Source: an uncultured Candidatus Saccharibacteria bacterium (GTDB lineage Bacteria; Patescibacteriota; Minisyncoccia; Phycocordibacterales; UBA9973). Taken from it: a stretch of DNA of 64,000 nucleotides. A program made the translations under genes and the position numbers. Where the stretch lies: the NCBI GenBank assembly GCA_964532495.1, contig CAZHJZ010000003.1:3658-67657 (forward strand), given 5' to 3'. Below the pieces are notes generated by a model. That model worked only from the letters and a program-made list of their open reading frames with translations. It made no database searches and had not been told where the DNA came from. Below are positions 3,096 to 57,638 of the stretch, in pieces. Positions within the stretch are counted from its first letter, which is position 1; each line of letters starts with the position of its first letter.

Positions 3096-3351
3096 GAATT
3101 TAGAATAGCATAAAACCCACCACTGCACATTTTAGTCTCGCCTGATCGCTGAAGCTCATATTTCTCACGCGGCTCGATCCAAATTGCCTACCGTAGCCGG
3201 AAAGAACCACTTTCTCTGACCCGAGGACTGGCGGCAAAGAGCATGACGTACGTAGATACGCTCCTTGTGACGCCTCCGCAGGGTTAGAGAAAGTGGTTCT
3301 TGGAGGCATTAGGTTTTGAATGCTCGCTGATAAACTAGTTACGTACAAATA

Positions 3352-3380
3352 TAAAACCCGCTCGGCATTGAGCGGGTTTT
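3352..3380. terminator. hairpin aaaacccgctcggcattgagcgggtttt; intrinsic terminator downstream of the 3432..5798 gene
   Basis: GC stem cccgctc/gagcggg flanked by A-tract and T-tract. Lies just past the stop of the minus-strand surface protein gene. Confidence 0.6.
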
Positions 3381-3431
3381 ATAGGCATTTATCATCGTCA
3401 CATAGGCGTTAATGATAATGTGTTTGGAGGC

Positions 3432-5798: not shown

Positions 5799-5805
5799 GT
5801 TTACT

Positions 5806-5834
5806 ATTGTATCACTTACTTGACCGTTTGTCAA
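5806..5834 (-). promoter_or_regulatory. sigma70-like promoter TTGACA-N17-(TG)aTACAAT for the surface protein gene, start codon ~7 nt downstream (leaderless-type)
   Basis: Minus strand reads TTGACAaacggtcaagtaagtgaTACAATagtaaacATG. Shares the motif TATTGACAA...GTGATACAATAG with the promoter at ~7898-7925. Confidence 0.55.
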
Positions 5835-12509: not shown

Positions 12510-13535
12510 GTGCTCTTCCCAGATGATTCAGAATCTATGGATACCCCTGAAAAACAAGAACATTTTAATGATCGCCATTTAGACCAAACACTGCGTCCTG
12601 ATGTTTGGACTGATTATATTGGCCAAAACACGATAAAGGAAAACTTGCGCATACTTTTGACTGCCGCAAAGGAGCGAAACCACCCTGCGGAGCATATTCT
12701 CTTTTATGGCCCTCCAGGATTGGGCAAAACCACCCTTGCCCACCTTGTGGCTCACGAAACAGGCCGCCAGATCAAGATCACTTCGGGTCCATCTATTGAG
12801 AAAGTTGGCGACCTCGCATCAATCCTCACCAACCTTGCTCCTGGCGATATTATTTTCATCGATGAGATTCACCGCTTGAACAAAATGGTGGAAGAAGTTC
12901 TCTACCCTGCCATGGAATCCGGCGTTTTGGATATCATCATCGGCAAAGGACCATCTGCGCGAACTATTCAGCTTGAACTTCCCCCATTTACCTTGATCGC
13001 CGCCACAACTAGAATTGCGCTTCTCTCCGCTCCGCTCCGCTCGCGCTTCGGCGGCGGCGTCTTCCGCCTTGAATTTTATTCTCATGACGAAATCAAAAAA
13101 ATCATCAGCCGTTCAGCAAAAATCCTCGGCGTGAACATCGACGACGAAGGCGTCGATGAAATTGCAAAGCGAGCTCGCTTTACTCCCCGCACCGCCAACT
13201 ATTTCCTCAAGCGTGTTCGCGACTACGCCCAAGTTCACAAAAAAGATCTCGATAAAAAAACGGTATTCCTCGCACTCTCTCTCCTCGGTATCGATGAAAT
13301 GGGACTTTCAGAATCTGACAGGAATATTCTCCAGACTATTATTGAAAAATTCAACGGTGGACCTGTCGGTCTCAACACCATCGCCGCGGCGACAAGCGAA
13401 GAAGAAGCTACAATAGAAGAAGTAGTTGAACCGTATCTCATCCAGCAAGGCTTGCTCGAGCGAACTCCTCGTGGACGAACAGCGACAAAGAAAGCATATG
13501 AACATCTAGGTTTTGAAGGTTTTATAGAGAAATAA
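12510..13535 (+). CDS. ruvB: Holliday junction branch migration ATPase RuvB
   Basis: AAA+ motifs [21 protein letters not shown], sensor region and the RuvB C-terminal winged-helix pattern. An extended -10 TGGTATACT sits ~65 nt upstream. Confidence 0.9.
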
Positions 13536-13563
13536 AAAACGCTGAATATTCAGCGTTTTTTAT
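13535..13563. terminator. bidirectional terminator aaaaaacgctgaatattcagcgtttttt between convergent ruvB and the hydrolase gene
   Basis: Perfect palindromic stem flanked by A6 and T6. Confidence 0.7.
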
Positions 13564-14157
13564 TTATTTCAATAGCTCTAATACTTCTTCCAAAATCTCC
13601 GGCGTACTCTCCCCTATTTCTTCATACATAAAATGTCCTTTCTTTGAAACCACAACAAGTTTCGGATCGAGTCGTTCTTTGAATGCCTGCTTATTTTTTT
13701 CAAACGGAATAAGCGGATCGTTGTCCGAGAGCATTACCGTCAGTCGAGGCAAAAGCTCGCGAACTTTTTTGTAATTCACTTTCTTTATCAGCCATCGAGG
13801 TATGATGATTCGCGCACCGAGTCCTACCAACCAGCCGTATGGAAATGATACGTATGACCATCCGCCCGCGAAAGCTCCGACGAGCAGTGCGCCGCCCGCT
13901 TTGTTTTCCTGAGATTGCATGAGGAGCATAATCGCACGCGTACCGAGACTGTATCCGACAAAGTATGTGTCCTCGTCGATCACGCCAACTTTGTTGCGAA
14001 GATGCGACATCCACAGCCACATCGGAGGAGTGTATGTCATTGGCATTTTCAGAGCCTCTACTTGATAGCCCCGTGCCAACAGTTCCCTGGTAAGCCACGG
14101 AATCCAATCCCGCTTCGGACTTCCTGACCAGCCGTGGACAATAATGACGCGTTTCAT
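13564..14157 (-). CDS. alpha/beta-fold serine hydrolase (RBBP9/YdeN-like)
   Basis: IIVHGWSGS...GYSLG (GxSxG nucleophile elbow)...DNDPLIP...GHF pattern. Start chosen at MKRVIIVHGW. An extended -10 TGCTATACT lies 8 nt before the ATG. Confidence 0.65.
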   Translation of the reverse strand: MKRVIIVHGWSGSPKRDWIPWLTRELLARGYQVEALKMPMTYTPPMWLWMSHLRNKVGVIDEDTYFVGYSLGTRAIMLLMQSQENKAGGALLVGAFAGGWSYVSFPYGWLVGLGARIIIPRWLIKKVNYKKVRELLPRLTVMLSDNDPLIPFEKNKQAFKERLDPKLVVVSKKGHFMYEEIGESTPEILEEVLELLK

Positions 14158-20559: not shown

Positions 20560-20816
20560 CGAATTTCTAAAACAATAAGACTTGTTTCTGAAGCGATCCT
20601 TTTCTGGATCGCTTCTTTTTTTAGAAACAGCTCGCTTCGCTTGATCGGATTTAATTTAAGAGTGAGTATATTCTTTTTATATACAATATCATTCTCGGTC
20701 AGTCGTATCTTTGTTTCTTCAAAAATAATAGTAGTCAGTGCTGCTCGTTCAGACAAATGCTTTTGCAGTCGAGCTCGCAGGTCGCCAAACATGTTGCCGA
20801 TGTGCTCGTTTTCCAT
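20556..20816 (-). CDS. small conserved protein downstream of dnaN, possibly DUF721/DciA-like
   Basis: 86-aa ORF immediately following dnaN, with a central hydrophobic/charged pattern (ALTTIIFEETKIRLTENDIVYKKNILTLKLNPIKRSELFLKKEAIQKRI). Synteny (dnaA-dnaN-this gene) supports the call; sequence similarity is only weak. Confidence 0.4.
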   Translation of the reverse strand: MENEHIGNMFGDLRARLQKHLSERAALTTIIFEETKIRLTENDIVYKKNILTLKLNPIKRSELFLKKEAIQKRIASETSLIVLEIR

Positions 20817-20820
20817 ATGA

Positions 20821-21918
20821 CTATCTGTTCATTGGCATAATAAGATACGTAAACGTAGTATCACCAACGCCTTTTACGAGAAGAGGTCGGTTTGAAGAAG
20901 TGCCTTCAAACATAATGCTGTCAGTAGGAATAGCGTTCAAACAATCAAGAAGGTATCGGTAGTTAATCACAACCGTGATTGGTTCCCCAGAAAGCGCAGC
21001 ATCGAGCGTTGCTTCGTTTTCTCCAACGTCACTGTTCTTTGCCGTAAGAACACAGCTCTTGTTTGCTGGATCAATAGCAATCGTTATCTGATTGAACTTA
21101 TCACTAAAAAGGGTGCTGGTCTTTACCGCGTTCATAAGATCGGATTTAAGAATAACCATTTCGCTCGTCTTTTCCTTTGGAAAGATTTTACGGTAATCAG
21201 GAAATACTCCATCAACAACGCGTGAAGTAATATAGTAACCATCAAAAGAAATAGAAAGGAGGTTTTTTGTTATGCAAAAAGAGAGTTCATTTGAAAGTCC
21301 GGAAATAAGACGCATAAGCTCAACTACGTTTTTGTAGGGCACGAGAATTGGCTGAAATCCATATAATCCTTTTATCTTTACTTTCTTTTCTGCGAGTCGG
21401 AATGAATCCGTAGCAACAAACGTAAGGTTGTCTTCTTCTGGGTAGATATAAATGCTGCCGATCTCTGGTTTGATGTCTGTCTGTGCTGCTGAGTAATACA
21501 CCGATTCAAGTCCATCAAGAAACGCGCTCGCTGAAATCTTTATTTTTTCTCCTTCAACTGTGGGGATGGTAGGAAAGTCTTCGTATGGAAATGTCTTAAT
21601 CTGAATTTTTGCCTGCTTGGTTTTTACCAATAGTGTTTCTCCAACTTGTTCAAGGGTTACTTCTTCATTTATCTTGCTATTAGAAAAGAATCCAGAAAGA
21701 ATAGCACCCGAAACCGCGACAACTCCTTCCTTCTCTACCTTTGCAGGTATTTCTATTTCAATACCGAGACTAAGGTTGGTTGCTCGAAGCTTCAACGATG
21801 ATCCTGATGCAATACAAAGAACAGATGAAAGAATCGGTAATGTAAGATTTTTACCGGTTACGCGTTCTGCGTGTATAAGTGCGTTCTTAACTTTTTCACT
21901 GGAGCAATGTATTTTCAT
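20821..21918 (-). CDS. dnaN: DNA polymerase III beta sliding clamp
   Basis: Three-domain beta-clamp pattern with N-terminus MKIHCSSEKVKNALIHAERVTGKNLTLPILSSVL, in canonical position after dnaA. Confidence 0.9.
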   Translation of the reverse strand: MKIHCSSEKVKNALIHAERVTGKNLTLPILSSVLCIASGSSLKLRATNLSLGIEIEIPAKVEKEGVVAVSGAILSGFFSNSKINEEVTLEQVGETLLVKTKQAKIQIKTFPYEDFPTIPTVEGEKIKISASAFLDGLESVYYSAAQTDIKPEIGSIYIYPEEDNLTFVATDSFRLAEKKVKIKGLYGFQPILVPYKNVVELMRLISGLSNELSFCITKNLLSISFDGYYITSRVVDGVFPDYRKIFPKEKTSEMVILKSDLMNAVKTSTLFSDKFNQITIAIDPANKSCVLTAKNSDVGENEATLDAALSGEPITVVINYRYLLDCLNAIPTDSIMFEGTSSNRPLLVKGVGDTTFTYLIMPMNR

Positions 21919-22127
21919 ATATATAAACTATTACTACTATTATACCTGTGGATTAGTGGATAACTTTTTCTAGGATTATTTTATAAGGGTATTTTATTCT
22001 TTTTACGTTTACTGAATTGTGTAGAACTTTTTGGAAAACATTTTAGTGTTCATATCTTATTTTTTTATCCACATCGATTTATTTTTTACACACAGCTATC
22101 AGATCTTTTATCCCAAGGATTTCCACA
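21919..22127. promoter_or_regulatory. AT-rich dnaA-dnaN intergenic region with DnaA boxes (candidate oriC / DNA-unwinding element)
   Basis: Perfect DnaA box TTATCCACA at ~22066-22074; GTGGATAAC (reverse box) at ~21953-21961; near-boxes tgtggatta and tttccacac. Long AT-rich runs in between. Confidence 0.6.
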
Positions 22128-23489
22128 CTATTTGAACATGATACGGAGCTGCTCTACTTCACTTACCAATACTGGATCGGTCTTCATATCATTTTTAATC
22201 TTGTCGCATGAGTGTATAACTGTCGTATGGTCCTTGCCGCCGAGTTTTTGTCCGATCAGTGGATATGAAACATTAAACTCTTCTCGGAGGATGTACATAA
22301 CCATTTGTCGCGCCTTCACGATCTCCTTGCGGCGTGTCTTCTCATAGATTGAATTCTCTTCAACGCTATAGAAGTCAGCAACAATCTTCACAACTTCCTT
22401 CGAAGAGATGTTTTTCTTTGGTTTAACGCTGTTTTTTATGAGGTTTTTGACTTCTGCAAGAGTGAGGGCGCGATTTCGAACCTGAGTTTGGATGACCAGC
22501 GTGTTTAGGTTTCCTTCAAGTTCTCGGATATTGCTCTCTACTGAAGCAGCAATGTATTCAAGAACGCCTTCCTCTACTGGAATCCCCCGCTCTTTGATCT
22601 TGGAGCGAAGCACAGCTACTCGTGATTCGTAATCTGGCTCAATAACATCAACGATCATTCCCTGTGAGAAACGAGAACGCAAGCGGTCTTCGAGTCCAGG
22701 AATAAAGTTTGGGTGCTTATCAGATGAAAATACGATCTGCTTGTTTGCTTCATAGAGAGTGTTGAACAAATGGAACAGTTCTTCCTGGCTTTTCTCCATT
22801 TTTCCAATGAATTGGATATCGTCCATGATAAGTACGTCGTATTTTCGGTACTTTTCTTTGAACACATGCGGCTTGTTGTTCTGAACAGAGCTGATGTAGT
22901 CCATAGCAAACTTTTCAAGAGTGATGTAGTGTACGCGCTTTTCTGGGTACTTAGCTTTTACTGCGTTTCCGAGAGACTGGATCAAGTGAGTTTTACCAAG
23001 ACCAGTGTTTCCGTACACAAAGAAAGGGTTGTATGCGCGTCCGGGCTTGCTAATAATGGCCTGTGAGGCTGCGTACGCGAGCTCATTGAATGGGCCAACG
23101 ATAAATGAGTCGAAGGTGTACTTCGGATTGAGGTTGTCATCGCGGTTGATGGGTGTTTCTACAAGAGGAAGCTCTTGAGGAGCGTCGGTTTTTGGCAAAG
23201 CAGCGTTTTCAGCCTGCTTCGCAACGCGCATTTCCGCTTTCATAATAGTGTATTCCACTGCGCGAATATGCTCAGCGACACTCATGAGAGATTTCAAAAT
23301 AAGCTTGTGGTATTTTTGGATCAGCCAGTCTTTGACGAATTCATTCGGTACGCCAACGAACACAACACCCTCTTCTTCTCGAATGACGGCCGTGTTTTTG
23401 AACCAAGTATTAAAATTTGCTTTTGAAACTTCTACTTCGATATCTTTCAAGCATCGAGCCCATAATTCGCGGGTGTCGGTTATTTCCAT
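22128..23489 (-). CDS. dnaA: chromosomal replication initiator DnaA
   Basis: AAA+ Walker A GNTGLGKTHL, DDIQF, sensor motifs, and a C-terminal DNA-binding domain (VSYPLIGQKLGGKDHTTVIHSCDKI). Confidence 0.95.
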   Translation of the reverse strand: MEITDTRELWARCLKDIEVEVSKANFNTWFKNTAVIREEEGVVFVGVPNEFVKDWLIQKYHKLILKSLMSVAEHIRAVEYTIMKAEMRVAKQAENAALPKTDAPQELPLVETPINRDDNLNPKYTFDSFIVGPFNELAYAASQAIISKPGRAYNPFFVYGNTGLGKTHLIQSLGNAVKAKYPEKRVHYITLEKFAMDYISSVQNNKPHVFKEKYRKYDVLIMDDIQFIGKMEKSQEELFHLFNTLYEANKQIVFSSDKHPNFIPGLEDRLRSRFSQGMIVDVIEPDYESRVAVLRSKIKERGIPVEEGVLEYIAASVESNIRELEGNLNTLVIQTQVRNRALTLAEVKNLIKNSVKPKKNISSKEVVKIVADFYSVEENSIYEKTRRKEIVKARQMVMYILREEFNVSYPLIGQKLGGKDHTTVIHSCDKIKNDMKTDPVLVSEVEQLRIMFK

Positions 23490-26160: not shown

Positions 26161-26652
26161 ATGCAAACAACCCAGATCGAACAAATTGTTAAGGAATTCT
26201 TCAAAGAAACCGGACTCTATGCCGGAGAGGTTTCATTCATCCAAGACGACGATACGAAAACGATCTGGTGTGCGATTTCACTCAACGACGGACGCCTTCT
26301 CACAGGCAAGAATGGTGAAACATTGGCTGCCATCAACCACCTTGTACGAAAGATTATTGAAAAGAATCTTGGTATCAAAGAGGAAGACAAGCAGGCCGCA
26401 TGGAATATAATTGTAGATATAAACAACTTCCAAAAGAAGCGCGTAGATAGCGTTAAAGCAGTGGCTCATATGATGGCAGAGCGTGCTCGATTCTTCAAAT
26501 CAAGCATTGAAGTTGATCCGATGCCGCCGTTTGAACGCCGAATCGTTCACGAATTTCTCTCAAACATGCCTGACCTCAAAACAGAATCTACTGGTGAAGG
26601 AATGAAGCGAAGAGTAGTGATCAAATACGTAGGAAATAACTCAACAATATAA
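26161..26652 (+). CDS. jag: Jag/KhpB-like RNA-binding protein (KH + R3H domains)
   Basis: Immediately follows yidC, as in the yidC-jag operon. The C-terminal R3H-like segment reads ...FERRIVHEFLSNMPDLKTESTGEGMKRRVVIKY. Confidence 0.7.
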   Translation: MQTTQIEQIVKEFFKETGLYAGEVSFIQDDDTKTIWCAISLNDGRLLTGKNGETLAAINHLVRKIIEKNLGIKEEDKQAAWNIIVDINNFQKKRVDSVKAVAHMMAERARFFKSSIEVDPMPPFERRIVHEFLSNMPDLKTESTGEGMKRRVVIKYVGNNSTI

Positions 26653-26654
26653 AT

Positions 26655-26692
26655 AAAAAACGTCTTACAATAGTAAGACGTTTTTTATTTAT
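26655..26692. terminator. bidirectional terminator aaaaaacgtcttac-aata-gtaagacgtttttt
   Basis: 10-bp perfect stem flanked by A6/T6, between convergent jag and the 26694..28319 gene. Confidence 0.7.
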
Positions 26693-26693
26693 A

Positions 26694-28319
26694 TTATATG
26701 GCTTGTTCTACAGGTGGAGTCAGATCGTATTGCCATAATATGTTTGTATCCCTGTTCATGAAATAGAGGTATCTGTATTTGTCGTCTACCCGCAATCGCA
26801 CGCCGTCTGTGGGTTCGCCGCCTTCCGAGAGCGGGCTAAATAGCTGGCGGTTGTCGTAGTTGCCTGTAGGGTCTATGTACCAGAATGAGTCGGTAAACGA
26901 TACTGTTCCCTGATACCAGCTATCTGGATAGACTGATCCAGCCGGGATAACAGCAGGAACTGCGCAATAAAGACTAGCACTGTCATTTGCCCAGACACAT
27001 TTCTCAGGAAGGCTATAGAGACCGAGGTTTGTTGTTTTATTGGTCGACACATCTTCAAGCGTAAGCGCTGGGCCGTTCTTTGTGTTTTTGCTATACAACA
27101 AGTATTGCCCGTTCGGACTCATAAGCGTTGTGAGCGCGCTCACCGGCCCTACAACCTTTGTGAAATCTCCTTTTGTAAGATCGGTAGTGTAGGCATATCC
27201 TGTGGCGTAGGCTGTTGCTTTGATGGTAAAGACAAGCTTGGTCGGCGTAGCCCACTGAGAAAGCCATCCAAAAAATTGTGAAGAAAATACTTTTTTCTGG
27301 TTCTTGCCATCAAGATCGCTGGTAAATCCAACAAGGTTGCCGCCAGTAGGGAGCAAGTAGAAAATCTGCTTTCCATCGGGTGAAATAGTGAGGTCTGCAA
27401 TATTTTTCGGCATTGCGAACACTGAAAGTTCCGGGAGTGAATCTCCCCCAACGACTGGTTCATTGATCTTTCCGATAAGAGTGTCGATGGTCTCGTTGTC
27501 AGCTTCAAGCGATCGGAGGAATACCTGCGCTCCCTGGTCTCCGAAGAATGCTTGCTGTACGCGAGGAATTGTCGTTGCCGAAAGGCGGGTTGTCTGAAGT
27601 GAATCTGCGAAAGCATCAAAAATGTTGCTTGTTCCTTCCGCGACAAATCGGACAATTTCTTTAAGTACTGTTTCTGGGGTTTCAACCGGGAAAGTACAAA
27701 CAAAACCAGCCTGGAGTTTTTTGATTGTTACCGCGTCTACTATGCCAGTACCATTGGTGAGGTTTTGCGGTTTTAAAATATCATCAGCAAAAAGTTCCTG
27801 GAAGACAGTGATTGCTTTTGCGGTTGCTGGGCCATACAAGGTTCCTTCTTTGCCGGGAGAGCCTGCTCCAGTCGCCGCAACCTGAGTAGCTGGACACTGG
27901 TTAAGCATTTTCTGAAGCTCTGTTACGTCTGTGCCAGTATCCCCCGTCTTGATCTCTTTTGAAAAAGCATATGATGTTGTAATGGTAACTTGTTTTGGTG
28001 CTGGAATGCTGTTTGGATCAACAGGCACTCGCTTTTGCGTAGTGGTGTAGCCAATGACCGGATTAACAGAAACTTTTCGTAGTCGAGGAATTTTTTGCCC
28101 TGGCGTTACAGTTGGTCCGCCCGTTGTCTGTTGCGGCCCGCTAGTCGTATTGTTGTTATTTTGAGCAGGATTTCCTGGCCCGAATGGGAAAAGATCCTTG
28201 ATCGTTACTGGCCCGCCGCCGTTATTCTTCTGTGCGTTTCGATACAGGAAAAATCCAAGGAGAAAAAGCCCGATGAGAACAAAGATAATTATTAAAATGG
28301 TAAATGATTTTTTTGACAT
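26694..28319 (-). CDS. membrane-anchored protein with peptidoglycan-binding (PG_binding_1-like) domain and TolB-like beta-propeller repeats; last gene of the T4SS-like locus
   Basis: N-terminal TM helix (FTILIIIFVLIGLFLLGFFLY); segment GDTGTDVTELQKMLNQ....LYGPATAKAITVFQ typical of the PG-binding domain; repeated SPDGKQIFY / SPNGQYLLYS PD40-like motifs. Confidence 0.6.
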   Translation of the reverse strand: MSKKSFTILIIIFVLIGLFLLGFFLYRNAQKNNGGGPVTIKDLFPFGPGNPAQNNNNTTSGPQQTTGGPTVTPGQKIPRLRKVSVNPVIGYTTTQKRVPVDPNSIPAPKQVTITTSYAFSKEIKTGDTGTDVTELQKMLNQCPATQVAATGAGSPGKEGTLYGPATAKAITVFQELFADDILKPQNLTNGTGIVDAVTIKKLQAGFVCTFPVETPETVLKEIVRFVAEGTSNIFDAFADSLQTTRLSATTIPRVQQAFFGDQGAQVFLRSLEADNETIDTLIGKINEPVVGGDSLPELSVFAMPKNIADLTISPDGKQIFYLLPTGGNLVGFTSDLDGKNQKKVFSSQFFGWLSQWATPTKLVFTIKATAYATGYAYTTDLTKGDFTKVVGPVSALTTLMSPNGQYLLYSKNTKNGPALTLEDVSTNKTTNLGLYSLPEKCVWANDSASLYCAVPAVIPAGSVYPDSWYQGTVSFTDSFWYIDPTGNYDNRQLFSPLSEGGEPTDGVRLRVDDKYRYLYFMNRDTNILWQYDLTPPVEQAI

Positions 28320-29385: not shown

Positions 29386-30411
29386 TTACTTTAGATTAAT
29401 AGTAATATTTTTTTCCGCCTCAAGGAAAAGCTTGAGGGTATTTTCAATGGAAACTTTCAAGTTTGAGATTCCCTTGGAGGAGCCGCTTTTGAGAGTAAGG
29501 GTATTTGGGGCATTCGGCGTAGTAACGGTATCGCCGTTGATAGTCCATGTGTATCTGAGCTGAGGAGATGTCGGACTCGCCGGGGAGAAATAATACGGAA
29601 TTGCAACGAGGGTTTTTTCTACTGAAGTTATGTCGTAGGATTTGCCAAGTTCGTGGTTCCAATCAACACCCTTGATGGCATCTCGCGCATACATGAGTAT
29701 TTGCGGTTTAAATATGGGTACGGTAACCGTACCAACTCCAACAGATCCCGTGGTGTTTTCTTGGCTCGTCACCTCGATCTTTTCTTCCTCGTTCAAATAG
29801 CTTTGCTGAAAAACAAGCGCGCTTTTGTTGAATCCTGAGTATTCCGGAATAGCAGCGTCATTTCGCTTCCATCTGAAAACGAAGTTGTTGATGTTTGCTG
29901 TTGTTCCCAGGTTGTTGATCTGAGGAATAGCCACGACTCGGATATACCCTTCAGAGCTCGGCAGCGCTCGTCCTCGGTAAAATGGAGGCGTATATGAATC
30001 AGCTCCCTCCCAGATCAAATCCGCTTCTGATGGGTTGAAGAGCATTCTTTTCTGGATAGCTTCACCAGTAGAGAGGAGCATAGAGACATCGATTGTGGTT
30101 ACCTGTCCAATGTCAGCAGTTGTGAACGTAAACTGGTTTGCTCCGGTTGCTGAAAGGACAGTCTTGCCATCTTTTTTCCAAATGAAAAATGCCCGGCTGA
30201 CATCGGTGAGGTAGCTGTCTACGGTAACAGTTACGTCTTGGAATGCTCCGGGTATTTCTGGTTCTGAAGAAAACGAGACATCTTGCTGGTTGATCTGTGA
30301 GGCTTCTTGGACTGAGAGTTGCGCGTTTGTAGCCAAAGGAAAGAGACCTTCTCCAAAGAAAAGACCGACTCCGATGATTCCCAATATGAGAAATAGAGGA
30401 ATGCGCTTCAC
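29386..30411 (-). CDS. secreted/membrane-anchored hypothetical protein (341 aa), possible VirB8/TcpC-like periplasmic component
   Basis: GTG start; N-terminal TM/signal (IPLFLILGIIGVGLFF). Position between virB4 and the pilin gene. Functional assignment is inference only. Confidence 0.5.
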   Translation of the reverse strand: MKRIPLFLILGIIGVGLFFGEGLFPLATNAQLSVQEASQINQQDVSFSSEPEIPGAFQDVTVTVDSYLTDVSRAFFIWKKDGKTVLSATGANQFTFTTADIGQVTTIDVSMLLSTGEAIQKRMLFNPSEADLIWEGADSYTPPFYRGRALPSSEGYIRVVAIPQINNLGTTANINNFVFRWKRNDAAIPEYSGFNKSALVFQQSYLNEEEKIEVTSQENTTGSVGVGTVTVPIFKPQILMYARDAIKGVDWNHELGKSYDITSVEKTLVAIPYYFSPASPTSPQLRYTWTINGDTVTTPNAPNTLTLKSGSSKGISNLKVSIENTLKLFLEAEKNITINLK

Positions 30412-30425
30412 AAGTTTATTATATC

Positions 30426-30455
30426 ATGCGACCTGGCGATAGCCAGGTCGCCTCG
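30426..30455 (-). promoter_or_regulatory. hairpin gcgacctggc-tatc-gccaggtcgc abutting extended -10 TGATATAAT, GTG start 9 nt downstream
   Basis: Minus strand reads ...gcgacctggctatcgccaggtcgcATGATATAATaaacttGTG. Same module architecture as at ~33565 and ~33040. Confidence 0.5.
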
Positions 30456-30545
30456 AGCGGCGTGGTACATTAAAACTCCTATACCAGGCTCGAGCAGCCA
30501 CTAATTGTAGGAAAAACTGAAGGGAGCACCACAAAACACCCCTTC

Positions 30546-32384
30546 TTACTTCCCTTCCACTTCCTCCAAATCCTGCTTTGCTTTTCGAATCGCAAGGATC
30601 TGTGAAGGATCGGATGTGACGATCTGTTCTTCTGTGTATGATGCAATGATCTTGATAGCTACGTGCTTGAGTCCGGCAAAGAAGATACCTTCTCCGACAC
30701 CTGATTCGAGGAGGAGATACTTTTCTTCGTCTGTTAGGTGGAACACTTTTTGAAGATTGTCGATCGAACTTGGTGATTGCTTGAGCAAGATCTGGATAGA
30801 TGAGTTGGAGACAATTGGCGGGCCGTACTGGCTTTTCATGAAGTCGTCGATATTTTGAGTGATAGTCGCAAGTCCGAGATAGTATTTACGTCCGCGTTTT
30901 GCAATACCGAACAAGAATGACGCTGTGTCTTCTGACTTCATCATGATCCACGCCTCGTCCACGACAAGAAGTCGCTTTTTGAGAGTCTTGCGAACAGCAG
31001 TCCAGATGTGGTGCGTGACGATATACATGGCAACTGGCTTCAAGTCTTCTTCCATGTCTCGGATCGAAAAGACAACAAGGCGCTTGTTGATGTCCACGTT
31101 TGTTGGCTGGTTCAAGAATGTTGACCATGAACCTTTGGTAAATTTCTGAAGACGCTGAAGAATGGATTCTGATCCGTCCATTCCGGCAATAACCATTTCA
31201 AAGTCTGAAAGAAGCGGCGGCTCGGAGTTTCCGAGGTCGCTATCTACAGTAATGTCTTTCAATGCGTATGTTTCAGTAATAGCGCGGTCAACGAGGGCGT
31301 CTTCTTCTGGAGTAAGTCCTCCAAGCATGATACGGAATAGTCCAACAAGTTCGATGACGTTTCGACGGATGACATCCCCTGCTGTTTCATCAGCCGTTGG
31401 CATTGGAAGGTCGAATGGGTTGATGTGGTGATCGGATGAAAGCGAAATATTGAAGTAGCGTCCGCCAACTGCTTCAGCGAGATATTCATATTCTCGTTCA
31501 GGGTCGATAACAATAACATCAGTATCGAACATGAGCGTACGAAGAATTTCGAGTTTTGTCGTAAATGATTTTCCCGAACCGGAAGTAGCGATGGTAACAG
31601 AGTTGTAGTTTTCGAGGGAGAATCGGTCAAAGATAATAAGACCGGAATTGTGACGGTTTACTCCGTACAAAATACCCTTATCTGACGTAAGATCGAATGA
31701 AACGAATGGGAACAAGCTTGAAAGCGGCTCGGAATTGAGCTTCTGGTGGATGTTCAGCATATCGTTTCCAATTGGAATAACGCTTTTGAACCCCTCTTCT
31801 TGCTGGAAAAGCGCCGGTTTTATATAGACCAATTTGGATTCAAGGATAGACTTGATCTCGTTCTCTGTTTTGAAAAGCTCCTGTTCGTTGTCTGCGTAGA
31901 TAGTAATATACAAACCGACGTCGAACATTTTTTGCTGAGCCTGCATCAAGCTGTTACGAAGACCTTCGAGGTCGTTCACAGCAGTATCGAGCATGGGATC
32001 TCGCACGAGGCCCTTGCCTTCGCGAACATTGATCTGGCTTTGCACTTCAGCTACCTTCTTTTGGAATTCTCGAAGAATCTTTTCTGTTTCTATAGGATGT
32101 ATGAAAATTGAAACATCGAAGATCTTGTCGAGGTTGATAACCGGAGAAAACCAGTTGTCGGTAAGGAAACGAGGATATGAAATAACGAAGAATGTTCGAG
32201 CAACCTTGTCTCCGAGGTTGATGGACTTCGGTTCTATTTTGAGAGCAGATGGTGCGATAATGTCGCGGAATTCAAGCGTTGCGGCTTCGTAAATTTCCGC
32301 AGGCAGAACTGGCAAAATACCGCTTGTCGTTTGAGATGACGATGCCGCCGACTTTTTTCCAAATAATGAATCGAGGAAGCTCAT
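30546..32384 (-). CDS. virB4: VirB4-family T4SS ATPase, C-terminal ATPase part (612 aa from MSFLD...)
   Basis: Walker A ATSGSGKSFTTK and Walker B LLVVDEAWIMM; overall TraE/TrsE/PrgJ-like. The track ORF extends 55 codons further upstream in this frame, overlapping the N-part ORF. Confidence 0.85.
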   Translation of the reverse strand: MSFLDSLFGKKSAASSSQTTSGILPVLPAEIYEAATLEFRDIIAPSALKIEPKSINLGDKVARTFFVISYPRFLTDNWFSPVINLDKIFDVSIFIHPIETEKILREFQKKVAEVQSQINVREGKGLVRDPMLDTAVNDLEGLRNSLMQAQQKMFDVGLYITIYADNEQELFKTENEIKSILESKLVYIKPALFQQEEGFKSVIPIGNDMLNIHQKLNSEPLSSLFPFVSFDLTSDKGILYGVNRHNSGLIIFDRFSLENYNSVTIATSGSGKSFTTKLEILRTLMFDTDVIVIDPEREYEYLAEAVGGRYFNISLSSDHHINPFDLPMPTADETAGDVIRRNVIELVGLFRIMLGGLTPEEDALVDRAITETYALKDITVDSDLGNSEPPLLSDFEMVIAGMDGSESILQRLQKFTKGSWSTFLNQPTNVDINKRLVVFSIRDMEEDLKPVAMYIVTHHIWTAVRKTLKKRLLVVDEAWIMMKSEDTASFLFGIAKRGRKYYLGLATITQNIDDFMKSQYGPPIVSNSSIQILLKQSPSSIDNLQKVFHLTDEEKYLLLESGVGEGIFFAGLKHVAIKIIASYTEEQIVTSDPSQILAIRKAKQDLEEVEGK

Positions 32385-32385
32385 A

Positions 32386-33027
32386 TTATTGCAATTTGAT
32401 GGAACGCGAGATGTCCCCTGGATTAAAGACCTTGTAATAAAGCTCAATGGCTTCTTCCGTGCCAACTTGTACTGAACGAACACCCACACGGGTAAGTCCT
32501 TGCTGTACGACTCCGATACGCTGGTCGAGCTGGGTGCGATGTTCTTCAAAGTCGATTACCGCATTGCTTTTTTTTGTGTCACTTGAAGACCGCATGCCTC
32601 CAAAAAGGGATTTGTTGATGGTTCCGGCTCCGAGAGGAGATGAGCTATACGGAACAACGACAATAAACTGCTTTGTCATGATTGCCACTTCATCTGTAAA
32701 GCTGCGGATAAAGTTGATGTATTCTCTGGTTTGGATTTTGAGAAGCGGTTCAAGCTGTTCCTTCATGCGGTTTTCAAGCAAGAGAATGTATGGGCGGATG
32801 TCGAGCTTTCGCGACTGGATAACTATTTGCACCGAAAAGTCGAGCGAGTTCAGGAAGTTTTGAAACTGCATGATGGTTCCCTGCTGCTCATCGGCAGACT
32901 TGAGGGAGAGGTTGACTGATGAGGCGATCAAAAGAGCGCGCATACTCCCATCATTCAAAATAATGATGCCGTCGCGCACTTCCTTGATCGGAACGAATTC
33001 TTGAGTTGCTTTTGCGTTCAGTGCCAT
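32386..33027 (-). CDS. virB4: VirB4-family N-terminal domain encoded as a separate 213-aa ORF
   Basis: KATQEFVPIKEVRDGIIILNDGSMRALLIASSVNLSLKSADEQ matches the conserved N-terminus of Gram-positive-type VirB4 (PrgJ/TrsE-like). The stop is followed by one nt and then the ATG of the ATPase part (TAAtATG). Confidence 0.75.
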   Translation of the reverse strand: MALNAKATQEFVPIKEVRDGIIILNDGSMRALLIASSVNLSLKSADEQQGTIMQFQNFLNSLDFSVQIVIQSRKLDIRPYILLLENRMKEQLEPLLKIQTREYINFIRSFTDEVAIMTKQFIVVVPYSSSPLGAGTINKSLFGGMRSSSDTKKSNAVIDFEEHRTQLDQRIGVVQQGLTRVGVRSVQVGTEEAIELYYKVFNPGDISRSIKLQ

Positions 33028-33039
33028 CTGATAAATAGT

Positions 33040-33079
33040 ATACCATACCCGAATTGCCGAAAGGCAATTCGGGTATGGT
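33040..33079 (-). promoter_or_regulatory. 18-bp perfect hairpin (taccatacccgaattgcc-gaaa-ggcaattcgggtatggt) overlapping extended -10 TGGTATACT, virB4-N ATG ~9 nt downstream
   Basis: Seen directly in sequence between the PrgI-like gene and the virB4-N start. Confidence 0.55.
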
Positions 33080-33118
33080 TATATGACGTTCTAAATATCT
33101 GCGACCAAGTGAGACCAG

Positions 33119-33544
33119 TTACTGTTTGTTCTTTTTTTCCATATCAAGCACATCCAAGCTCCAGGAAAGGTCTTTCAGCTTGGAATTAGAGAGTTTTGGA
33201 ACATAATTGAAGTTTGAAAGAGAAACATCGTCTTTCTTTTCCTCGTCCTCTTTTTTCTTTGCCTTTCTGTTCTGTTTCCAGATATAGAGCTTGGCGCCAA
33301 TATAGTAATTGAAAGCCGATTCCATGATGGCGATAAACGGACGGTTATTTACTTTATAGAATGTAAGTGCAAGCGCGAGAGGAGCTATAATAAGTATGAG
33401 AGGGACAGAAAAATAGATCGGCAAGAGTTTGTAGAGCGCAAATGATGCTCCTCCTCCGCCGACCAAATAGATAAATTGCTTGAACGTGAATGGTCCAAAG
33501 ATCTTGTCTTCCACATCAATAAATTGTGGGACTTGAAATTGCAT
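33119..33544 (-). CDS. PrgI-family / VirB3-like small T4SS membrane protein
   Basis: MQFQVPQFIDVEDKIFGPFTFKQFIYLVGGGGASFALYKLLP then a second TM helix. Matches the PrgI-family N-terminal pattern (V.P.DL..V.DK.F..LT.RQ....G) with two TM segments. Sits directly upstream of virB4. Confidence 0.55.
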   Translation of the reverse strand: MQFQVPQFIDVEDKIFGPFTFKQFIYLVGGGGASFALYKLLPIYFSVPLILIIAPLALALTFYKVNNRPFIAIMESAFNYYIGAKLYIWKQNRKAKKKEDEEKKDDVSLSNFNYVPKLSNSKLKDLSWSLDVLDMEKKNKQ

Positions 33545-33564
33545 ATGTGTAGTATATCATGACT

Positions 33565-33584
33565 GACCGATAGGTCAGTCACTT
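33565..33584 (-). promoter_or_regulatory. hairpin gactgacc-tatc-ggtcagtc followed by extended -10 TGATATACT, ATG 6 nt downstream
   Basis: Minus strand reads aaaaagtgactgacctatcggtcagtcATGATATACTacacatATG (PrgI-like gene start). Confidence 0.5.
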
Positions 33585-33585
33585 T

Positions 33586-34353
33586 TTATTCTACTGGCTC
33601 TCGATATGAGTCCCCTGTCTTTGCTCCGACACTGCCTCCGCCTACGTTCTTGATCGTGCGATCTGTCTCTTTTGCTGGCATAGAGAATGTTCCGCCTAGT
33701 TTTCCTGCAAGAATGTCATCGGCAGGCTTTGCCGTCATTGGAATAGGCTGTTTGATAGCGTCTACGGACGGAGCGCCTCCCGCGTATGGAGCGCGAGGAA
33801 CAGGAATAGTTGCGCTAGCTGGCTTCTGAAAGTTCTCATTGAGAACTCGCGGAGTTGAAGGAGCTGGGTTTTCAATGCCTTTGATCATGTCTGCGCGGTT
33901 TTCAGTTGCTCCTGCGGAAGGAGTTTGAGTTGGCGCATCAGGCTGAATAGATACTCCGGACTGTGCGAAAAGGTCTTTTTCTGTTTCTGAAGAAATATCA
34001 TCGCTGCCATCTGTCGGCTTGTACAGATTCATAAGAGATGCACGGATCGGAGTAAATACCTTGTCTTTTATTTCTTGAATGAGTTCGGTAAGTTCCTCTG
34101 GCTTTTGTCCGAGTTCGTGCGCAATATCTTTTTCATACTGTGATGGAGGGGTCATTCCAAGAAGCACCATGGTAGTTTCAAGTTCAAGCGTACCCAATTT
34201 TTCATAGGTAAGCTTGTGCTTCTTCGCTATTTCGAAAAGCTGCATTTGGTAATCGCTTGAAGTGATCGTCTTTTGAATTTCTTCAGGCAAAAGGGTAAAA
34301 CGAGTCTTTAGTTCCTTTTGAAGATCTTCGAAGTTGTCTTTGTTTTTATCCAT
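33586..34353 (-). CDS. hypothetical soluble protein (255 aa) within the T4SS-like locus
   Basis: Track ORF; acidic N-terminal helical region, Pro/Ala-rich C-terminus. Confidence 0.5.
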   Translation of the reverse strand: MDKNKDNFEDLQKELKTRFTLLPEEIQKTITSSDYQMQLFEIAKKHKLTYEKLGTLELETTMVLLGMTPPSQYEKDIAHELGQKPEELTELIQEIKDKVFTPIRASLMNLYKPTDGSDDISSETEKDLFAQSGVSIQPDAPTQTPSAGATENRADMIKGIENPAPSTPRVLNENFQKPASATIPVPRAPYAGGAPSVDAIKQPIPMTAKPADDILAGKLGGTFSMPAKETDRTIKNVGGGSVGAKTGDSYREPVE

Positions 34354-37699: not shown

Positions 37700-37735
37700 T
37701 GGGGATAACAAAACCCCCGGAAGGAGATCCTTCCG
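37700..37735. terminator. strong terminator aaaacccccggaagg-agat-ccttccgggggttttt
   Basis: 11-bp GC-rich perfect stem flanked by A4/T5. Lies between the 956-aa gene and the VirB6-like gene, so the locus is at least two transcription units. Confidence 0.7.
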
Positions 37736-37750
37736 GGGGTTTTTATAAAG

Positions 37751-42407: not shown

Positions 42408-44330
42408 TTAATCGAAGTAGATAGTTCGTATTCTAGCATTTGCGCGGACTTCGCGTTCAGTTAGAAAATCAGGGATATCATAGAGGAATTCAGACGGCGT
42501 AGCTACCTGACGCATGCCAAATAAGGCTCGAATCGTAGCGTATGTGAGGAAAAGCTTCTTTTCTGCACGGGTAACGGCAACATAGAAGAGGCGGCGTTCT
42601 TCCTCGCGGTGTTCAGCGCTTGCATGCTCTCGCGGCGCGTGCGGGAAAAGATCCTGTTCAAGGCCGGTAATGAAGACATATTTGAATTCCAGTCCTTTTG
42701 AAGCGTGCACGGTCATAAGACGGACGCTTTCTCCGTCTTTGATGCCGTCTTGGTCTGAAGCAAGTGCTGCATCGTCAAGCAATTTTTCCAATCCCTCGCC
42801 AAGCGGCATTGCGTCATACTTTGTCGCAAGCGTCGCCATTTCTTGTATGTTCTCCAAACGTTCAAGGTCGCTCGCGTCCCCTGCTTTAAGTTCGGCTTCG
42901 ATGCCGCTCAGTTTGATCACTTCGCGGATGAGCTCTGATGGTAAAAGTGTTTCGCTTAAGCCGCGTACTTTCTCTAGTACTTCATAAAATGAAGCGACTT
43001 TCTTTTCAGTTGCCGCTGGAAGTGCAGCTCGTTCGCCAGAAAAAAGTTTTGCAAGCGTTGCCTTGCCCAGTCCGCGTGCAGGGAAATTGATAATTCGTTT
43101 TATGTCAGAAAGGTTGTCAGGGTTTCGTGCAGCACGAATGTACGCAAGCATGTCTTTGATTTCTTTTCGATCGTAGAATTTTGTCCCCAAGACTTGGTAC
43201 GGAACATTTTTCCCAATGAGTGCTTCTTCGAGTACGCGCGATTGAAAGTTTGCGCGATACAAGATGGCGATTGAACCTGCAGGAGTTCCCTCTCCGATAA
43301 GCTTGTCGATTTTTTCTGCAACGAATTCCGCCTCGTCGTTCTGGTCGTACGCTTCGTATATGCCGATCAGTTCGCCATCATTGTTTTCCGTGAATAATGT
43401 TTTTTCAACACGGACAGTATTTTTTTTGATGACTGCGTTCGCTGCTGCGAGAATTGTCTTGGTTGAACGATAGTTCTGTTCAAGGAAAAAGACTTTCGTC
43501 CCAGGAAAATCCTTTTCGAAATGAAGCATGTTTTTGAGTCGTGCGCCGCGCCAGCTGTAAATATTTTGATCAGTATCTCCCACCACGCAGATGTTGTATT
43601 CGCCATTCTGATCAGGAGACGCAAGGAGTTTTGTCAGTTCATACTGCACTTCGTTCGTGTCTTGGTATTCATCGATGTGGATATATTTAAATCGAGCCTG
43701 ATAGCTTTTGCGGACCTCCAGGTTGTTCTTCAAAAGCAGGACTGTTTCAAGGAGCAGGTCGTCAAAGTCGAATGCTTTTTCTTCTCTCAGTTTTCGGTCA
43801 TACATTTCCCATACCTTTGCCACTGTTTCTTCTGTGAAACTGCTCGCTTTTGCTCGATATGCTGACACGGTCACGAAGTCCCCTTTTTCTCTGGAAATAA
43901 TATGCTTAAACTTTTTCGCATCATGAATTTTTGGATCAAGGCCGAATGAAATGATACATTCTTTGATCATGGAAACAGCGTCGCTCTCATCTAGAATTCC
44001 AAAGTGGCGGTTTCTTCCGACAAGAGCACAGTGTTCGCGGAGAATGTGCACGCCGAGCGAGTGAAACGTGGAAACATGCGGCAGTGTATCCAGGCGATCT
44101 CCTGCTAGAGCTTTCGCTACGCGGTCGCGCATTTCAGCGGCGGCTTTGTTTGTGAAAGTGATTGCAAGAATATTGTGCGGAAGAACGCCATGGTGAACAA
44201 GATTCACGATGCGTGATGTTACGGTTTTTGTTTTGCCTGCTCCCGCTCCTGCCACGATCAGTATCGGGCCGGAAAGGGTTTCAGCTGCTTTTCGTTGTGG
44301 TTCGTTGAGAGTTGCGAGGTGCGGATGCAT
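42408..44330 (-). CDS. uvrD: UvrD/PcrA-family ATP-dependent DNA helicase
   Basis: LNEPQRKAAE, Walker A AGAGAGKTKT, DEYQDTN and the remaining SF1 helicase motifs. Start set at MHPHLATLN, 7 nt after an extended -10 TGCTATGAT. Confidence 0.9.
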   Translation of the reverse strand: MHPHLATLNEPQRKAAETLSGPILIVAGAGAGKTKTVTSRIVNLVHHGVLPHNILAITFTNKAAAEMRDRVAKALAGDRLDTLPHVSTFHSLGVHILREHCALVGRNRHFGILDESDAVSMIKECIISFGLDPKIHDAKKFKHIISREKGDFVTVSAYRAKASSFTEETVAKVWEMYDRKLREEKAFDFDDLLLETVLLLKNNLEVRKSYQARFKYIHIDEYQDTNEVQYELTKLLASPDQNGEYNICVVGDTDQNIYSWRGARLKNMLHFEKDFPGTKVFFLEQNYRSTKTILAAANAVIKKNTVRVEKTLFTENNDGELIGIYEAYDQNDEAEFVAEKIDKLIGEGTPAGSIAILYRANFQSRVLEEALIGKNVPYQVLGTKFYDRKEIKDMLAYIRAARNPDNLSDIKRIINFPARGLGKATLAKLFSGERAALPAATEKKVASFYEVLEKVRGLSETLLPSELIREVIKLSGIEAELKAGDASDLERLENIQEMATLATKYDAMPLGEGLEKLLDDAALASDQDGIKDGESVRLMTVHASKGLEFKYVFITGLEQDLFPHAPREHASAEHREEERRLFYVAVTRAEKKLFLTYATIRALFGMRQVATPSEFLYDIPDFLTEREVRANARIRTIYFD

Positions 44331-44352
44331 GAGGAGTATCATAGCATAAAAT

Positions 44353-44392
44353 AATTCCCGCCTCGCGGCCGAAGGCCGCGAGGCGGGAATTT
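44353..44392. terminator. 18-bp GC-rich perfect hairpin aattcccgcctcgcggcc-gaa-ggccgcgaggcgggaatt (terminator of the 901-aa gene, abutting the uvrD promoter)
   Basis: Seen directly; flanked by A/T runs. Followed on the minus strand by TTATGCTATGATactcctcATG. Confidence 0.65.
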
Positions 44393-56138: not shown

Positions 56139-56179
56139 GAAACAGTACCAAGACGAGATGAAGTAAAAATAAATAAAAA

Positions 56180-56201
56180 ATCGCCCATAGCGGGCGATTT
56201 T
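56180..56201. terminator. terminator aaaaaatcgccc-ata-gcgggcgatttttta
   Basis: 7-bp GC stem with A/T flanks, downstream of the 56213..56572 gene. Confidence 0.6.
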
Positions 56202-56212
56202 TTATTTTTAGA

Positions 56213-57558: not shown

Positions 57559-57601
57559 ATTCGTACATCATACTCTATTTCGCGTCTTCAGAAAACTTAT
57601 A

Positions 57602-57638
57602 AAAAATACCCCAGTATAAACCTGGGGTATTTTTTAGT
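57602..57638. terminator. bidirectional terminator aaaaaataccccag-tataaac-ctggggtattttttag after pnp
   Basis: 8-bp stem flanked by A6/T6. Confidence 0.65.

Follow-up and report, generated by a model that had tools for sequence, protein, structure and literature searches.

We analyzed a window of 64,000 nt (contig CAZHJZ010000003.1, positions 3,658–67,657 of the forward strand, assembly GCA_964532495.1) from an uncultured Candidatus Saccharibacteria bacterium (GTDB Patescibacteriota; Minisyncoccia; Phycocordibacterales; UBA9973), in which three perfect hairpins abut or overlap the extended −10 boxes of genes in a type IV secretion system (T4SS) locus on the minus strand, as the original prediction had described. 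These hairpins, M1, M2 and M3, lie at the junctions from the VirB4 gene to a 341-aa gene (J1), from the PrgI-like gene to a TraC-like open reading frame (ORF) (J2), and from a 255-aa gene to the PrgI-like gene (J3), respectively. We found that M1, M2 and M3 are, as judged by the homology of their flanks, diverged copies of one ~90-nt intergenic cassette and hence not independent of each other. The explanation toward which we lean, with some reserve, is that they are terminator-like, insulating or 3'-end-stabilizing hairpins packed against −35-independent leaderless promoters. Neither part of the modules is new in kind: leaderless promoters with an extended −10 and hairpins resembling terminators are both known.

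Stable GC-containing stem-loops lie past the upstream stop codon on the sense strand at M1, M2, M3 and a further hairpin at the uvrD junction (−15.5 to −37.8 kcal/mol), at a distance from the stop codon of 3–5 nt for M3, 39 nt for M2 and ~95 nt for M1. Folding of the four isolated hairpins, which had been suggested as a check, gave z-scores of −5.9 to −8.4. The window contains 21 perfect hairpins of at least 8 bp as compared with 6.6 ± 2.6 in dinucleotide shuffles, and nearly all of the excess is intergenic. Downstream of each hairpin, TGn stands directly 5' of a TATAAT-like hexamer (T1, A2, T6), namely in TGATATAAT (M1), TGGTATACT (M2), TGATATACT (M3) and TGCTATGAT (uvrD). The −35 position falls within the hairpins, with a 4/6 match at M3 only (CTGACC at 16 nt). 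The 3' end of the M2 hairpin, TGG and the first T of the hexamer, overlaps the extended −10 by 4 nt, and the 9-bp Watson-Crick core of M3 (33560–33581) runs straight into TGATATACT. The hexamer-to-start spacers are 6 nt at M1 (9 nt had been given for this gene) and M3, 7 nt at uvrD and 9 nt at M2, the last implying a leader of 2–3 nt. Where the spacer is 6 nt long, the A of ATG falls on the seventh nucleotide past the hexamer, the usual start position of such promoters. The start codons are backed by homologues, since in most loci the alignments of the PrgI and TraC-like N-termini begin at residue 1, and relatives have GTG AAG CGC in common; the UvrD helicase domain begins at residue 8 of the ORF starting at 44328–44330. 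The uvrD site, which had been counted as a fourth module, proved to be of another kind: its hairpin is separated from the −10 by a 6-nt T-rich tract and is a canonical U-tract terminator, unrelated to the cassette.

The −10 box followed by 6–9 nt and a start codon had been taken as special to these modules and the T4SS locus. We found instead that it is shared by genes of the whole clade, here represented by 1017 ORFs from 80 related Paceibacteria/Nomurabacteria loci (L001–L080). In these ORFs, TANNNT occurs 188 times at a spacer of 6 nt and 91 times at 7 nt, over a background of ~30 per position, and TGNTANNNT occurs 48 and 24 times at the same spacers over a background of 1–2, a 20- to 40-fold enrichment. 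Shine-Dalgarno (SD)-like tetramers are depleted at −3 to −12 before the starts. A −10 box with 5 or 6 of its 6 positions matched lies 6–14 nt ahead of the start in 17 of 46 genes of the window, and an SD-like tetramer precedes only 1–3 of the 46 genes and none of the four module genes. The TANNNT peak at 6 nt, the frequent TGnTANNNT and the SD depletion therefore indicate that the extended −10 with a short spacer is the putative generic leaderless gene-start signal of this clade. The same counts support the proposal of individually promoted, leaderless-type cistrons with extended −10 boxes, and the T4SS locus appears to be expressed from several such putative internal promoters. Many further genes of the clade have neither a −10 nor an SD site and start 0–4 nt past the previous stop codon.

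A comparable signal is known from the "group C" genomes of GeneMarkS-2, in which a Pribnow box lies 6–8 nt from the start and transcription is leaderless (PMC6028130). The resemblance to these Actinobacteria and Deinococcus-Thermus genomes extends to the −10 peak at 6–7 nt before ATG, the lack of SD sites and the many first-in-unit genes. The present lineage, in contrast, belongs to the Patescibacteria (Paceibacteria/Nomurabacteria); its −10 very often has the TGn extension, SD sites are depleted even at genes without a −10, and its transcription start sites are predicted ones. The literature that we searched held no report tying leaderless mRNAs to the candidate phyla radiation (CPR), Patescibacteria or Saccharibacteria, which is absence of evidence only. 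The SD-free leaderless start signal across this class of Patescibacteria is clear and apparently previously unreported.

The evidence for a cassette comes from the spacers of the window, L162 and L163; by PrgI identity, the close relatives are L162 (97%), L081 (89%), and L163 and L164 (84–85%). The cassette consists of an imperfect hairpin (ii), a perfect tetraloop hairpin (iii) and, 3–4 nt on, the −10 hexamer, which at J2 of the window overlaps the stem by 1 nt; a short form with hairpin iii and the promoter is found at J3 of the window and of L162. In L163, the ~90-nt sequence 5' of PrgI matches the window spacer 5' of the 341-aa gene. Searches with nhmmer in a search space of ~4 Mb gave E-values of 2.7e-4 for L163 J3 against window J1, and of 0.01 and 0.013 for window J1 against L163 J3 and L162 J2, respectively. 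When the alignments were limited to the parts 5' of the perfect hairpin, which excludes the shared −10, p was ~2e-4 and 4e-4. A loop-centered alignment of the hairpin iii copies has both partners varying at 9 of 10 pairs and 96% of its cells paired, as compared with 15–40% in slid controls, showing that in these predicted stems the pairing has been kept through two-sided changes. RNAalifold found both cassette hairpins, with 7 of 20 pairs compensatory. Because every sequence of this covariation set was picked as a hairpin and the set holds ~3 independent copies, the argument for the cassette rests on the homology of the flanks. The claim that a shared element rather than coincidence underlies the three sites is therefore borne out as to the common descent of M1–M3, but not as to conservation, as the hairpins are not conserved in most relatives. 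Nor is the loop fixed, as had been assumed; it reads UAUU at M3 in L162, the closest relative, and UCUC in L163.

Homologous copies at different junctions (J1 and J2 of the window, J2 of L162 and J3 of L163), together with some compensatory pairs in the two-hairpin consensus, might point to a small mobile or structured-RNA element (MITE/REP/Correia-like, a small RNA or a 3'-untranslated region) able to move from one intergenic site to another with an outward promoter of its own. We consider this highly unlikely. There are only three copies in the window, all within 3.2 kb; the rest of the 64-kb window yielded no other copy (covariance model with filters off; repeat search), nor, apart from those of L162 and L163, did ~2 Mb of related loci (hidden Markov model and covariance-model searches). 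No repeat family includes the hairpins, no tRNA was found at them, and Rfam 15 gave no match at gathering thresholds in the window and none at E ≤ 1 in 30350–33650. In addition, the alignments show no terminal inverted repeats or target duplications, and the structure of hairpin ii is poorly conserved among the copies. The cassette does resemble REP/BIME, Correia/NEMIS, BOX and ERIC in being a multi-copy, hairpin-forming intergenic sequence beside genes with potential effects on transcription or mRNA stability; it differs from them in having three local, diverged copies, no dispersed family and no terminal repeats. A dispersed repeat or mobile element was accordingly rejected, and on the available sequences the three copies are a putative local duplication within one locus. 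We also considered the upstream half of the cassette as a decayed older J1 promoter, as GGA-TTTTAATG matches L001, and rejected this at p ~0.06.

Some features of the copies would suit binding sites on duplex DNA. The palindromes span about −15 to −40 of three promoters in one functional locus, M1 and M3 have the outer half-sites GYGAC...GTCRY and a central TATC in common, and all copies agree in the closing C-G pair and in positions 1 and 3 of the loop, as if a dimeric regulator seated over the −35 region co-regulated the internal promoters of the T4SS locus. From copy to copy, however, at least half of the stem positions differ, M2 being quite unlike the others, and one regulator could not read all three; as a common operator motif, GYGAC-N14-GTCRY was rejected, since it occurs nowhere in the window but at M1 and M3, and the sites are missing in most relatives having the same genes and promoters. 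Since it is the pairing and not the sequence that is conserved, which points to a single-strand structure, operators are disfavored, and we regard them as very unlikely.

Comparison of the three junctions among relatives separated the promoter from the hairpin. An extended −10 followed by 5–9 nt and a start codon is found at J1, J2 and J3 in many relatives. Nearly every related locus has TGnTATAAT, 5–8 nt and ATG or GTG 5' of the 341-aa gene, and PrgI and the TraC-like ORF have the extended −10 start signal in relatives wherever any spacer exists. At J1, L001 and L168–L173 have TGGTATAMT, 6–7 nt and GTG without a hairpin. At J2, L081 reads ...GGGAATGTGATATACT-ATTTATCAG-ATG without a hairpin, with the same −10 and spacer as the window; this M2 −10 and spacer, ATTTATCAG, is identical in L081, L162 and L161, the last being an independent Logan assembly whose M2 and M3 region is base-for-base the same as the window. 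At J3, L165 (596–612) and L166 (3985–4001) have TAG-TGGTATACT-6 nt-ATG and L081 has ...GAATAG-TGATATACT-AATTAC-ATG, all without a hairpin; TGATATACT is thus kept in L081 without the hairpin and in L162 with it.

The hairpin is absent at these junctions in most of the 80 loci, and the few hairpins that are present are unrelated in sequence. Hairpins of the M type are confined to the window species, its relative at 97% identity and, for a single junction, one at 84%. The expectation of a conserved hairpin element at orthologous junctions was thus not realized; as far as the compared sequences tell, the hairpins are young and lineage-specific and the promoters conserved, parts of different age. 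L162 has kept the M3 hairpin, differing from the window in the loop and not in the stem. Its M2 stem is 12 bp long; differences on the 5' side leave the outer five window pairs unformed, with the 3' side and the promoter identical. L163 and L164 have only CCC-GAAA-GGG (3 bp) at the M2 position. Stem lengths at J2 therefore range from 0 bp (L081, L001, L165, L166) through 3 bp (L163, L164) and 12 bp (L162) to 17 bp (window), by growth or decay, and on this sampling the predicted J2 stem is evolutionarily labile.

Such a series is what would be expected if the hairpins were functionless palindromes, born or grown in place by replication template switching or local inverted duplication and tolerated between a stop codon and a −35-independent promoter. 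Near-neutral palindrome-forming mutation is the main rival of the explanation that we favor. Among close relatives the J2 stem steps from 0 to 3, 12 and 17 bp with an unchanged 3' side and promoter; all stems are perfect, as expected of recent template-switch events (PMC8794818); the hairpin is absent in most relatives; and its abutment to the promoter is not enriched clade-wide (see below). In L001, moreover, the 5' arm of the J3 hairpin is formed by the final codons of the gene upstream. The likeness to the template-switch hairpins of PMC8794818 lies in the perfect stems, the stepwise stem lengths and one arm that apparently pre-existed (the coding end at L001 J3; the promoter-upstream sequence at J2), and the differences are that the change here is growth or decay and that the statistics of arm ancestry are weak. 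Local alignments of single arms to outgroup spacers were not significant, for which reason template-switch ancestry of single arms was rejected, and an anchored comparison of the M2 3' arm with L001 (9/17 matches, p = 0.026) is suggestive only. Two-sided changes at 9 of 10 pairs would further need selection or repeated re-homogenization, and perfect hairpins in the window are ~3 times as frequent as in shuffles, with an almost wholly intergenic excess. Functionless palindromes are on these grounds a possible but unlikely account. The octamer ACCTATCG is common to the J3 hairpins of the window (33565–33572, end of the 5' arm and loop) and of L001 (8825–8832, 5' arm, coding), with a chance of ~2%, which hints that the J3 palindromes may have been re-centered on a shared ancestral sequence. 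In mostly low-GC loci (L013, L026, L028, L029, L039, L041, L050, L075, L078), the spacers near PrgI, VirB4 and the 341-aa gene contain arrays of short tandem motifs in place of hairpins, for example taattcgtaattcgtaattcg; agcttatagcttatagc / ctaaaagctaaaagctaaaag; gcctagagcctagggcctaaagcc; and taggcgttaggcgctaggctttaggcg.

To see whether direct abutment is favored, 1.49 Mb of related loci were scanned for perfect hairpins with stems of 7 bp or more, including 3 or more GC pairs. Of 378 such hairpins, 59 have a leaderless-type start within 110 nt downstream, and the hairpin-to-hexamer gaps are flat from −5 to ~40 nt (4, 4, 5, 2, 6, 5, 6, 3 and 5 cases per 5-nt bin). The clade-wide scan that had been called for in the original prediction therefore revealed no excess of direct abutment over other short distances; packing of a hairpin against the −10 is allowed and common, but has no preference over gaps that are slightly larger. 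At other junctions, hairpins of unrelated sequence abut leaderless promoters in L001, L002, L029, L046, L055 and L072, with a T-tract within the stem base in L002, L055 and L072 and just 3' of the stem in L001. The window itself has an excess of three abutting cases (binomial p ~0.007–0.02), which is due to their common descent from one cassette. There is also little room for anything else. In L005, L009 and L017, the TGA stop codon of the gene upstream in the VirB4-to-next-gene spacer is the TG of the extended −10 TGATATAAT; where the stop codon touches or forms this TG, the upstream half of the promoter lies inside coding sequence, and an insert has essentially no other place to go. Such sharing or contact between the VirB4 stop codon and the TG of the following −10 is seen in L005, L009, L017, L031 and L059, and TAG directly precedes the extended −10 in L165 and L166.

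The genes at issue belong to a set of monoderm type, as judged by a Pfam scan of the locus, which also found T4SS-pilin-like and peptidoglycan-binding proteins. Coordinates are collected in Table 1. The window has a GC content of 44.6%, and the minus strand carries all genes between ~26.7 and 47 kb. Its nearest public genomes are uncultured Patescibacteria named Nomurabacteria, Paceibacteria or "Saccharibacteria", with VirB4 identities of 77–89%. VirB4 is split in the window into two ORFs with 1 base between them (TAA-t-ATG), and since the split is present in every relative examined, it is not a frameshift artefact.

Table 1. Hairpins, promoters and T4SS genes in the window (positions in nt of the window)
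Feature	Position	Strand	Details
GTG start of the 341-aa gene	30409–30411	minus	
M1 extended −10 TGATATAAT	30418–30426	minus	1 nt (A) past the hairpin; 6 nt before GTG
M1 perfect hairpin (hairpin iii of the J1 cassette), GCGACCUGGC-UAUC-GCCAGGUCGC	30428–30451	minus	10 bp; −20.4 kcal/mol; z −7.7
J1 cassette, upstream half with imperfect hairpin ii (GCUCGAGCCUGGUAU...ACCACGCCGCUCGAG)	30452–30500	minus	homologous to the upstream halves of L163 J3 and L162 J2
Weak stem-loop, then AGUUUUU	30512–30545	minus	directly past the VirB4 stop codon; −9.7 kcal/mol; candidate terminator of the VirB4 transcript
VirB4-like ATPase (TraG P-loop/AAA_10), 612 aa	30546–32384	minus	Pfam
TraC-like / VirB4 N-terminal ORF, 213 aa	32386–33027	minus	
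M2 extended −10 TGGTATACT	33037–33045	minus	9 nt before ATG (33025–33027) of the 213-aa TraC-like ORF
M2 perfect hairpin	33042–33079	minus	17 bp; loop UUUC; −30.6 kcal/mol
J2 cassette, upstream half	33080–33118	minus	orthologous to L162 J2, which matches the window J1 cassette
PrgI/VirB3-like protein	33119–33544	minus	Pfam
M3 extended −10 TGATATACT	33551–33559	minus	6 nt before ATG (33542–33544) of the PrgI/VirB3-like gene
M3 hairpin	33559–33582	minus	9 Watson-Crick pairs and closing G.U (33559/33582); loop UAUC; −15.5 kcal/mol; short cassette form
uvrD extended −10 TGCTATGAT	44338–44346	minus	7 nt before ATG (44328–44330); ATTTTA between hairpin and −10
uvrD-junction hairpin	44353–44391	minus	18 bp; A-tract and T-tract; −37.8 kcal/mol

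The position of the hairpins within a T4SS locus raised the question of oriT- or nic-like single-strand DNA signals for a relaxase-type enzyme. Origin of transfer (oriT) sites typically consist of a hairpin and a short conserved 3' flank. Here the three hairpins have different sequences, most relatives have this T4SS but lack the sites, and what would be the conserved 3' flank is the −10 motif that precedes hundreds of unrelated genes across the clade. A Pfam scan of ten T4SS-locus proteins detected no relaxase-like domain, and a survey of CPR T4SS found no associated relaxases (bioRxiv 10.1101/2025.01.22.634366). With three unlike hairpins, no relaxase and a universal promoter motif as the 3' flank, this candidate is disfavored to the point of being close to refuted, and we give it hardly any probability.

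The hairpins were therefore weighed as terminators of the upstream transcripts. They share with intrinsic terminators, including bidirectional A-tract/T-tract ones, the GC-containing stem-loop past the stop codon, with a T-rich tail at uvrD and, marginally, at M2; they differ in that M1 and M3 have no U-tract and that the 3' flank is the −10 of the next gene. The uvrD hairpin, with AAUU in the stem base and the 3' flank AUUUUAUG, has a U-tract and passed the terminator scan. The 3' flank of M2, AUACUAUUUA, passes a lenient terminator scan with a borderline U-tract. Several findings weigh against termination as the function of the cassette hairpins. At M1 (3' flank AUGAUAUAA) and M3 ((U)GAUAUACU) there is no proper U-tract, which according to the original prediction the −10 could supply; these flanks, being −10 boxes, are 78–89% A/U and have only 3–4 U in 9 nt. 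The clear terminators of the window (13530, 26646, 37710, 44353, 56171 and 57600) all have a strong T-tract, and as the unambiguous ones, at convergent gene ends and at 37710 and 57600, have strong A and T tracts, M1 and M3 are atypical. Most relatives run the same junctions without any hairpin, so that the hairpins are dispensable, and the way in which the covariation set was picked tells in the same direction. U-tract-less "I-shaped" hairpins of mycobacteria, moreover, did not terminate transcription in vitro (Czyz et al. 2014, as summarized in PMC5335608).

These mycobacterial hairpins (Unniraman 2001; TtsaD in PMC5335608) are nonetheless the closest parallel in one respect, being stable hairpins without a U-trail amid operon-like genes with internal promoters, for which partial termination or pausing has been proposed; they lowered downstream expression in vivo, in contrast to their failure in vitro (PMC5335608). 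Their activity is disputed and a need for the U-tract in vitro has been reported; the hairpin described here differs in being fused to a leaderless promoter, in being part of a duplicated cassette and in being known from sequence. With two of the three lacking a U-tract, we infer termination by M1–M3 from their sequence and position, as we do the transcription start sites, any stabilizing activity and the selective reason for the arrangement. At moderate confidence, the hairpins may act by partial termination or pausing that shields the leaderless promoter, and/or by stabilization of the 3' end. A function on the plus strand was rejected, as there is a T-tract at M3 and none at M1 or M2, and the plus-strand loops (GAUA, GAAA, GAGA, AAUA) are not consistently GNRA.

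Perfect A-tract/T-tract palindromes of 14–23 bp, of the bidirectional-terminator type, occur in the window at 3350–3383, 13530–13565, 26646–26695, 37710–37743, 56171–56207 and 57600–57636. Such hairpins are fewer per kb in most related loci, many of which have none, and more frequent in L080, L002, L057 and L078. The position of one canonical terminator is kept between the window (37710–37743) and L001 (4589–4622), where the flanks align and the stem sequence is wholly different; another (window 20590–20615, L001 20337–20362) differs by one compensatory pair (C-G to T-A).

According to the explanation that we favor, the −35-independent extended −10 (TGnTATAMT) would start the transcript at, or 2–3 nt before, the start codon, and the leaderless mRNA would then be translated without an SD site, as a normal gene start in the Paceibacteria/Nomurabacteria clade. 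Since such a promoter needs nothing 5' of about −15 and the intergenic spacers are minimal, any added element ends pressed against the −10. In the window lineage, a ~90-nt cassette in diverged copies fills three junctions of the T4SS locus. Because the hairpin would lie outside the leaderless mRNA of the gene that follows, any role at the RNA level concerns the upstream transcript. Most likely the hairpins would pause or partly terminate RNA polymerase ahead of the next promoter; less read-through would mean less occlusion of that promoter and less of an internal cistron that is SD-less and poorly translated. They could also set a nuclease-resistant 3' end of the upstream transcript.

A stronger, joint reading would be that expression in this class is essentially SD-free and runs on −35-independent extended −10 promoters firing at the start codon, each independently expressed gene needing its own, and that the window-lineage cassette joins a U-tract-less hairpin to the A/U-rich −10 of the next gene as a composite terminator, a 9-nt sequence serving as both transcript end and promoter, which was copied to three T4SS junctions for separate tuning. 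We regard this conjunction as decidedly unlikely. If the hairpin and −10 do terminate transcription, they would be an economical case of one sequence doing two jobs; if they do not, they would be a clean natural example of how perfect hairpins arise, lengthen and are copied locally where intergenic space is minimal. The local duplication of the cassette with kept pairing is a modest curiosity, and the SD-free start signal is the more useful by-product. A rule of TGnTATAAT plus 6 nt can place start codons in this clade instead of an SD site, and operon prediction by intergenic distance is misleading here because promoters lie in or right after the stop codon of the upstream gene. These points bear on the annotation and on the organization of transcription and translation in Patescibacteria, which have tiny genomes and almost no experimental genetics.

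The J1 cassette also contains a 20-codon ORF (MYHAARGDLAIARSHDIINL; 30408–30470, minus strand), which is preceded by TGGTATAGG and 7 nt and whose stop codon overlaps the GTG of the 341-aa gene (GTGA). As it is missing from the other cassette copies, this leaderless mini-ORF is probably fortuitous and was rejected as a real gene. The gene order conserved among relatives (PrgI, TraC-like N-terminal ORF, VirB4, 341-aa gene, pilin-like gene) agrees with that of the CPR T4SS described in bioRxiv 10.1101/2025.01.22.634366. UvrD, KsgA, DnaA and DnaN are encoded near the locus, dnaN and dnaA (20821–23489) at ~7 kb from the T4SS cluster. This position fits with CPR T4SS loci reportedly lying often near the replication origin; the conserved T4SS locus is also said to be essential in a cultivated relative. 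Elsewhere in the window, a direct repeat of 138 nt (4486–4623 and 4735–4872; 72% identity, 249-nt period) lies within an 800-aa ORF (3432–5834), which indicates a predicted internal repeat in the encoded protein.

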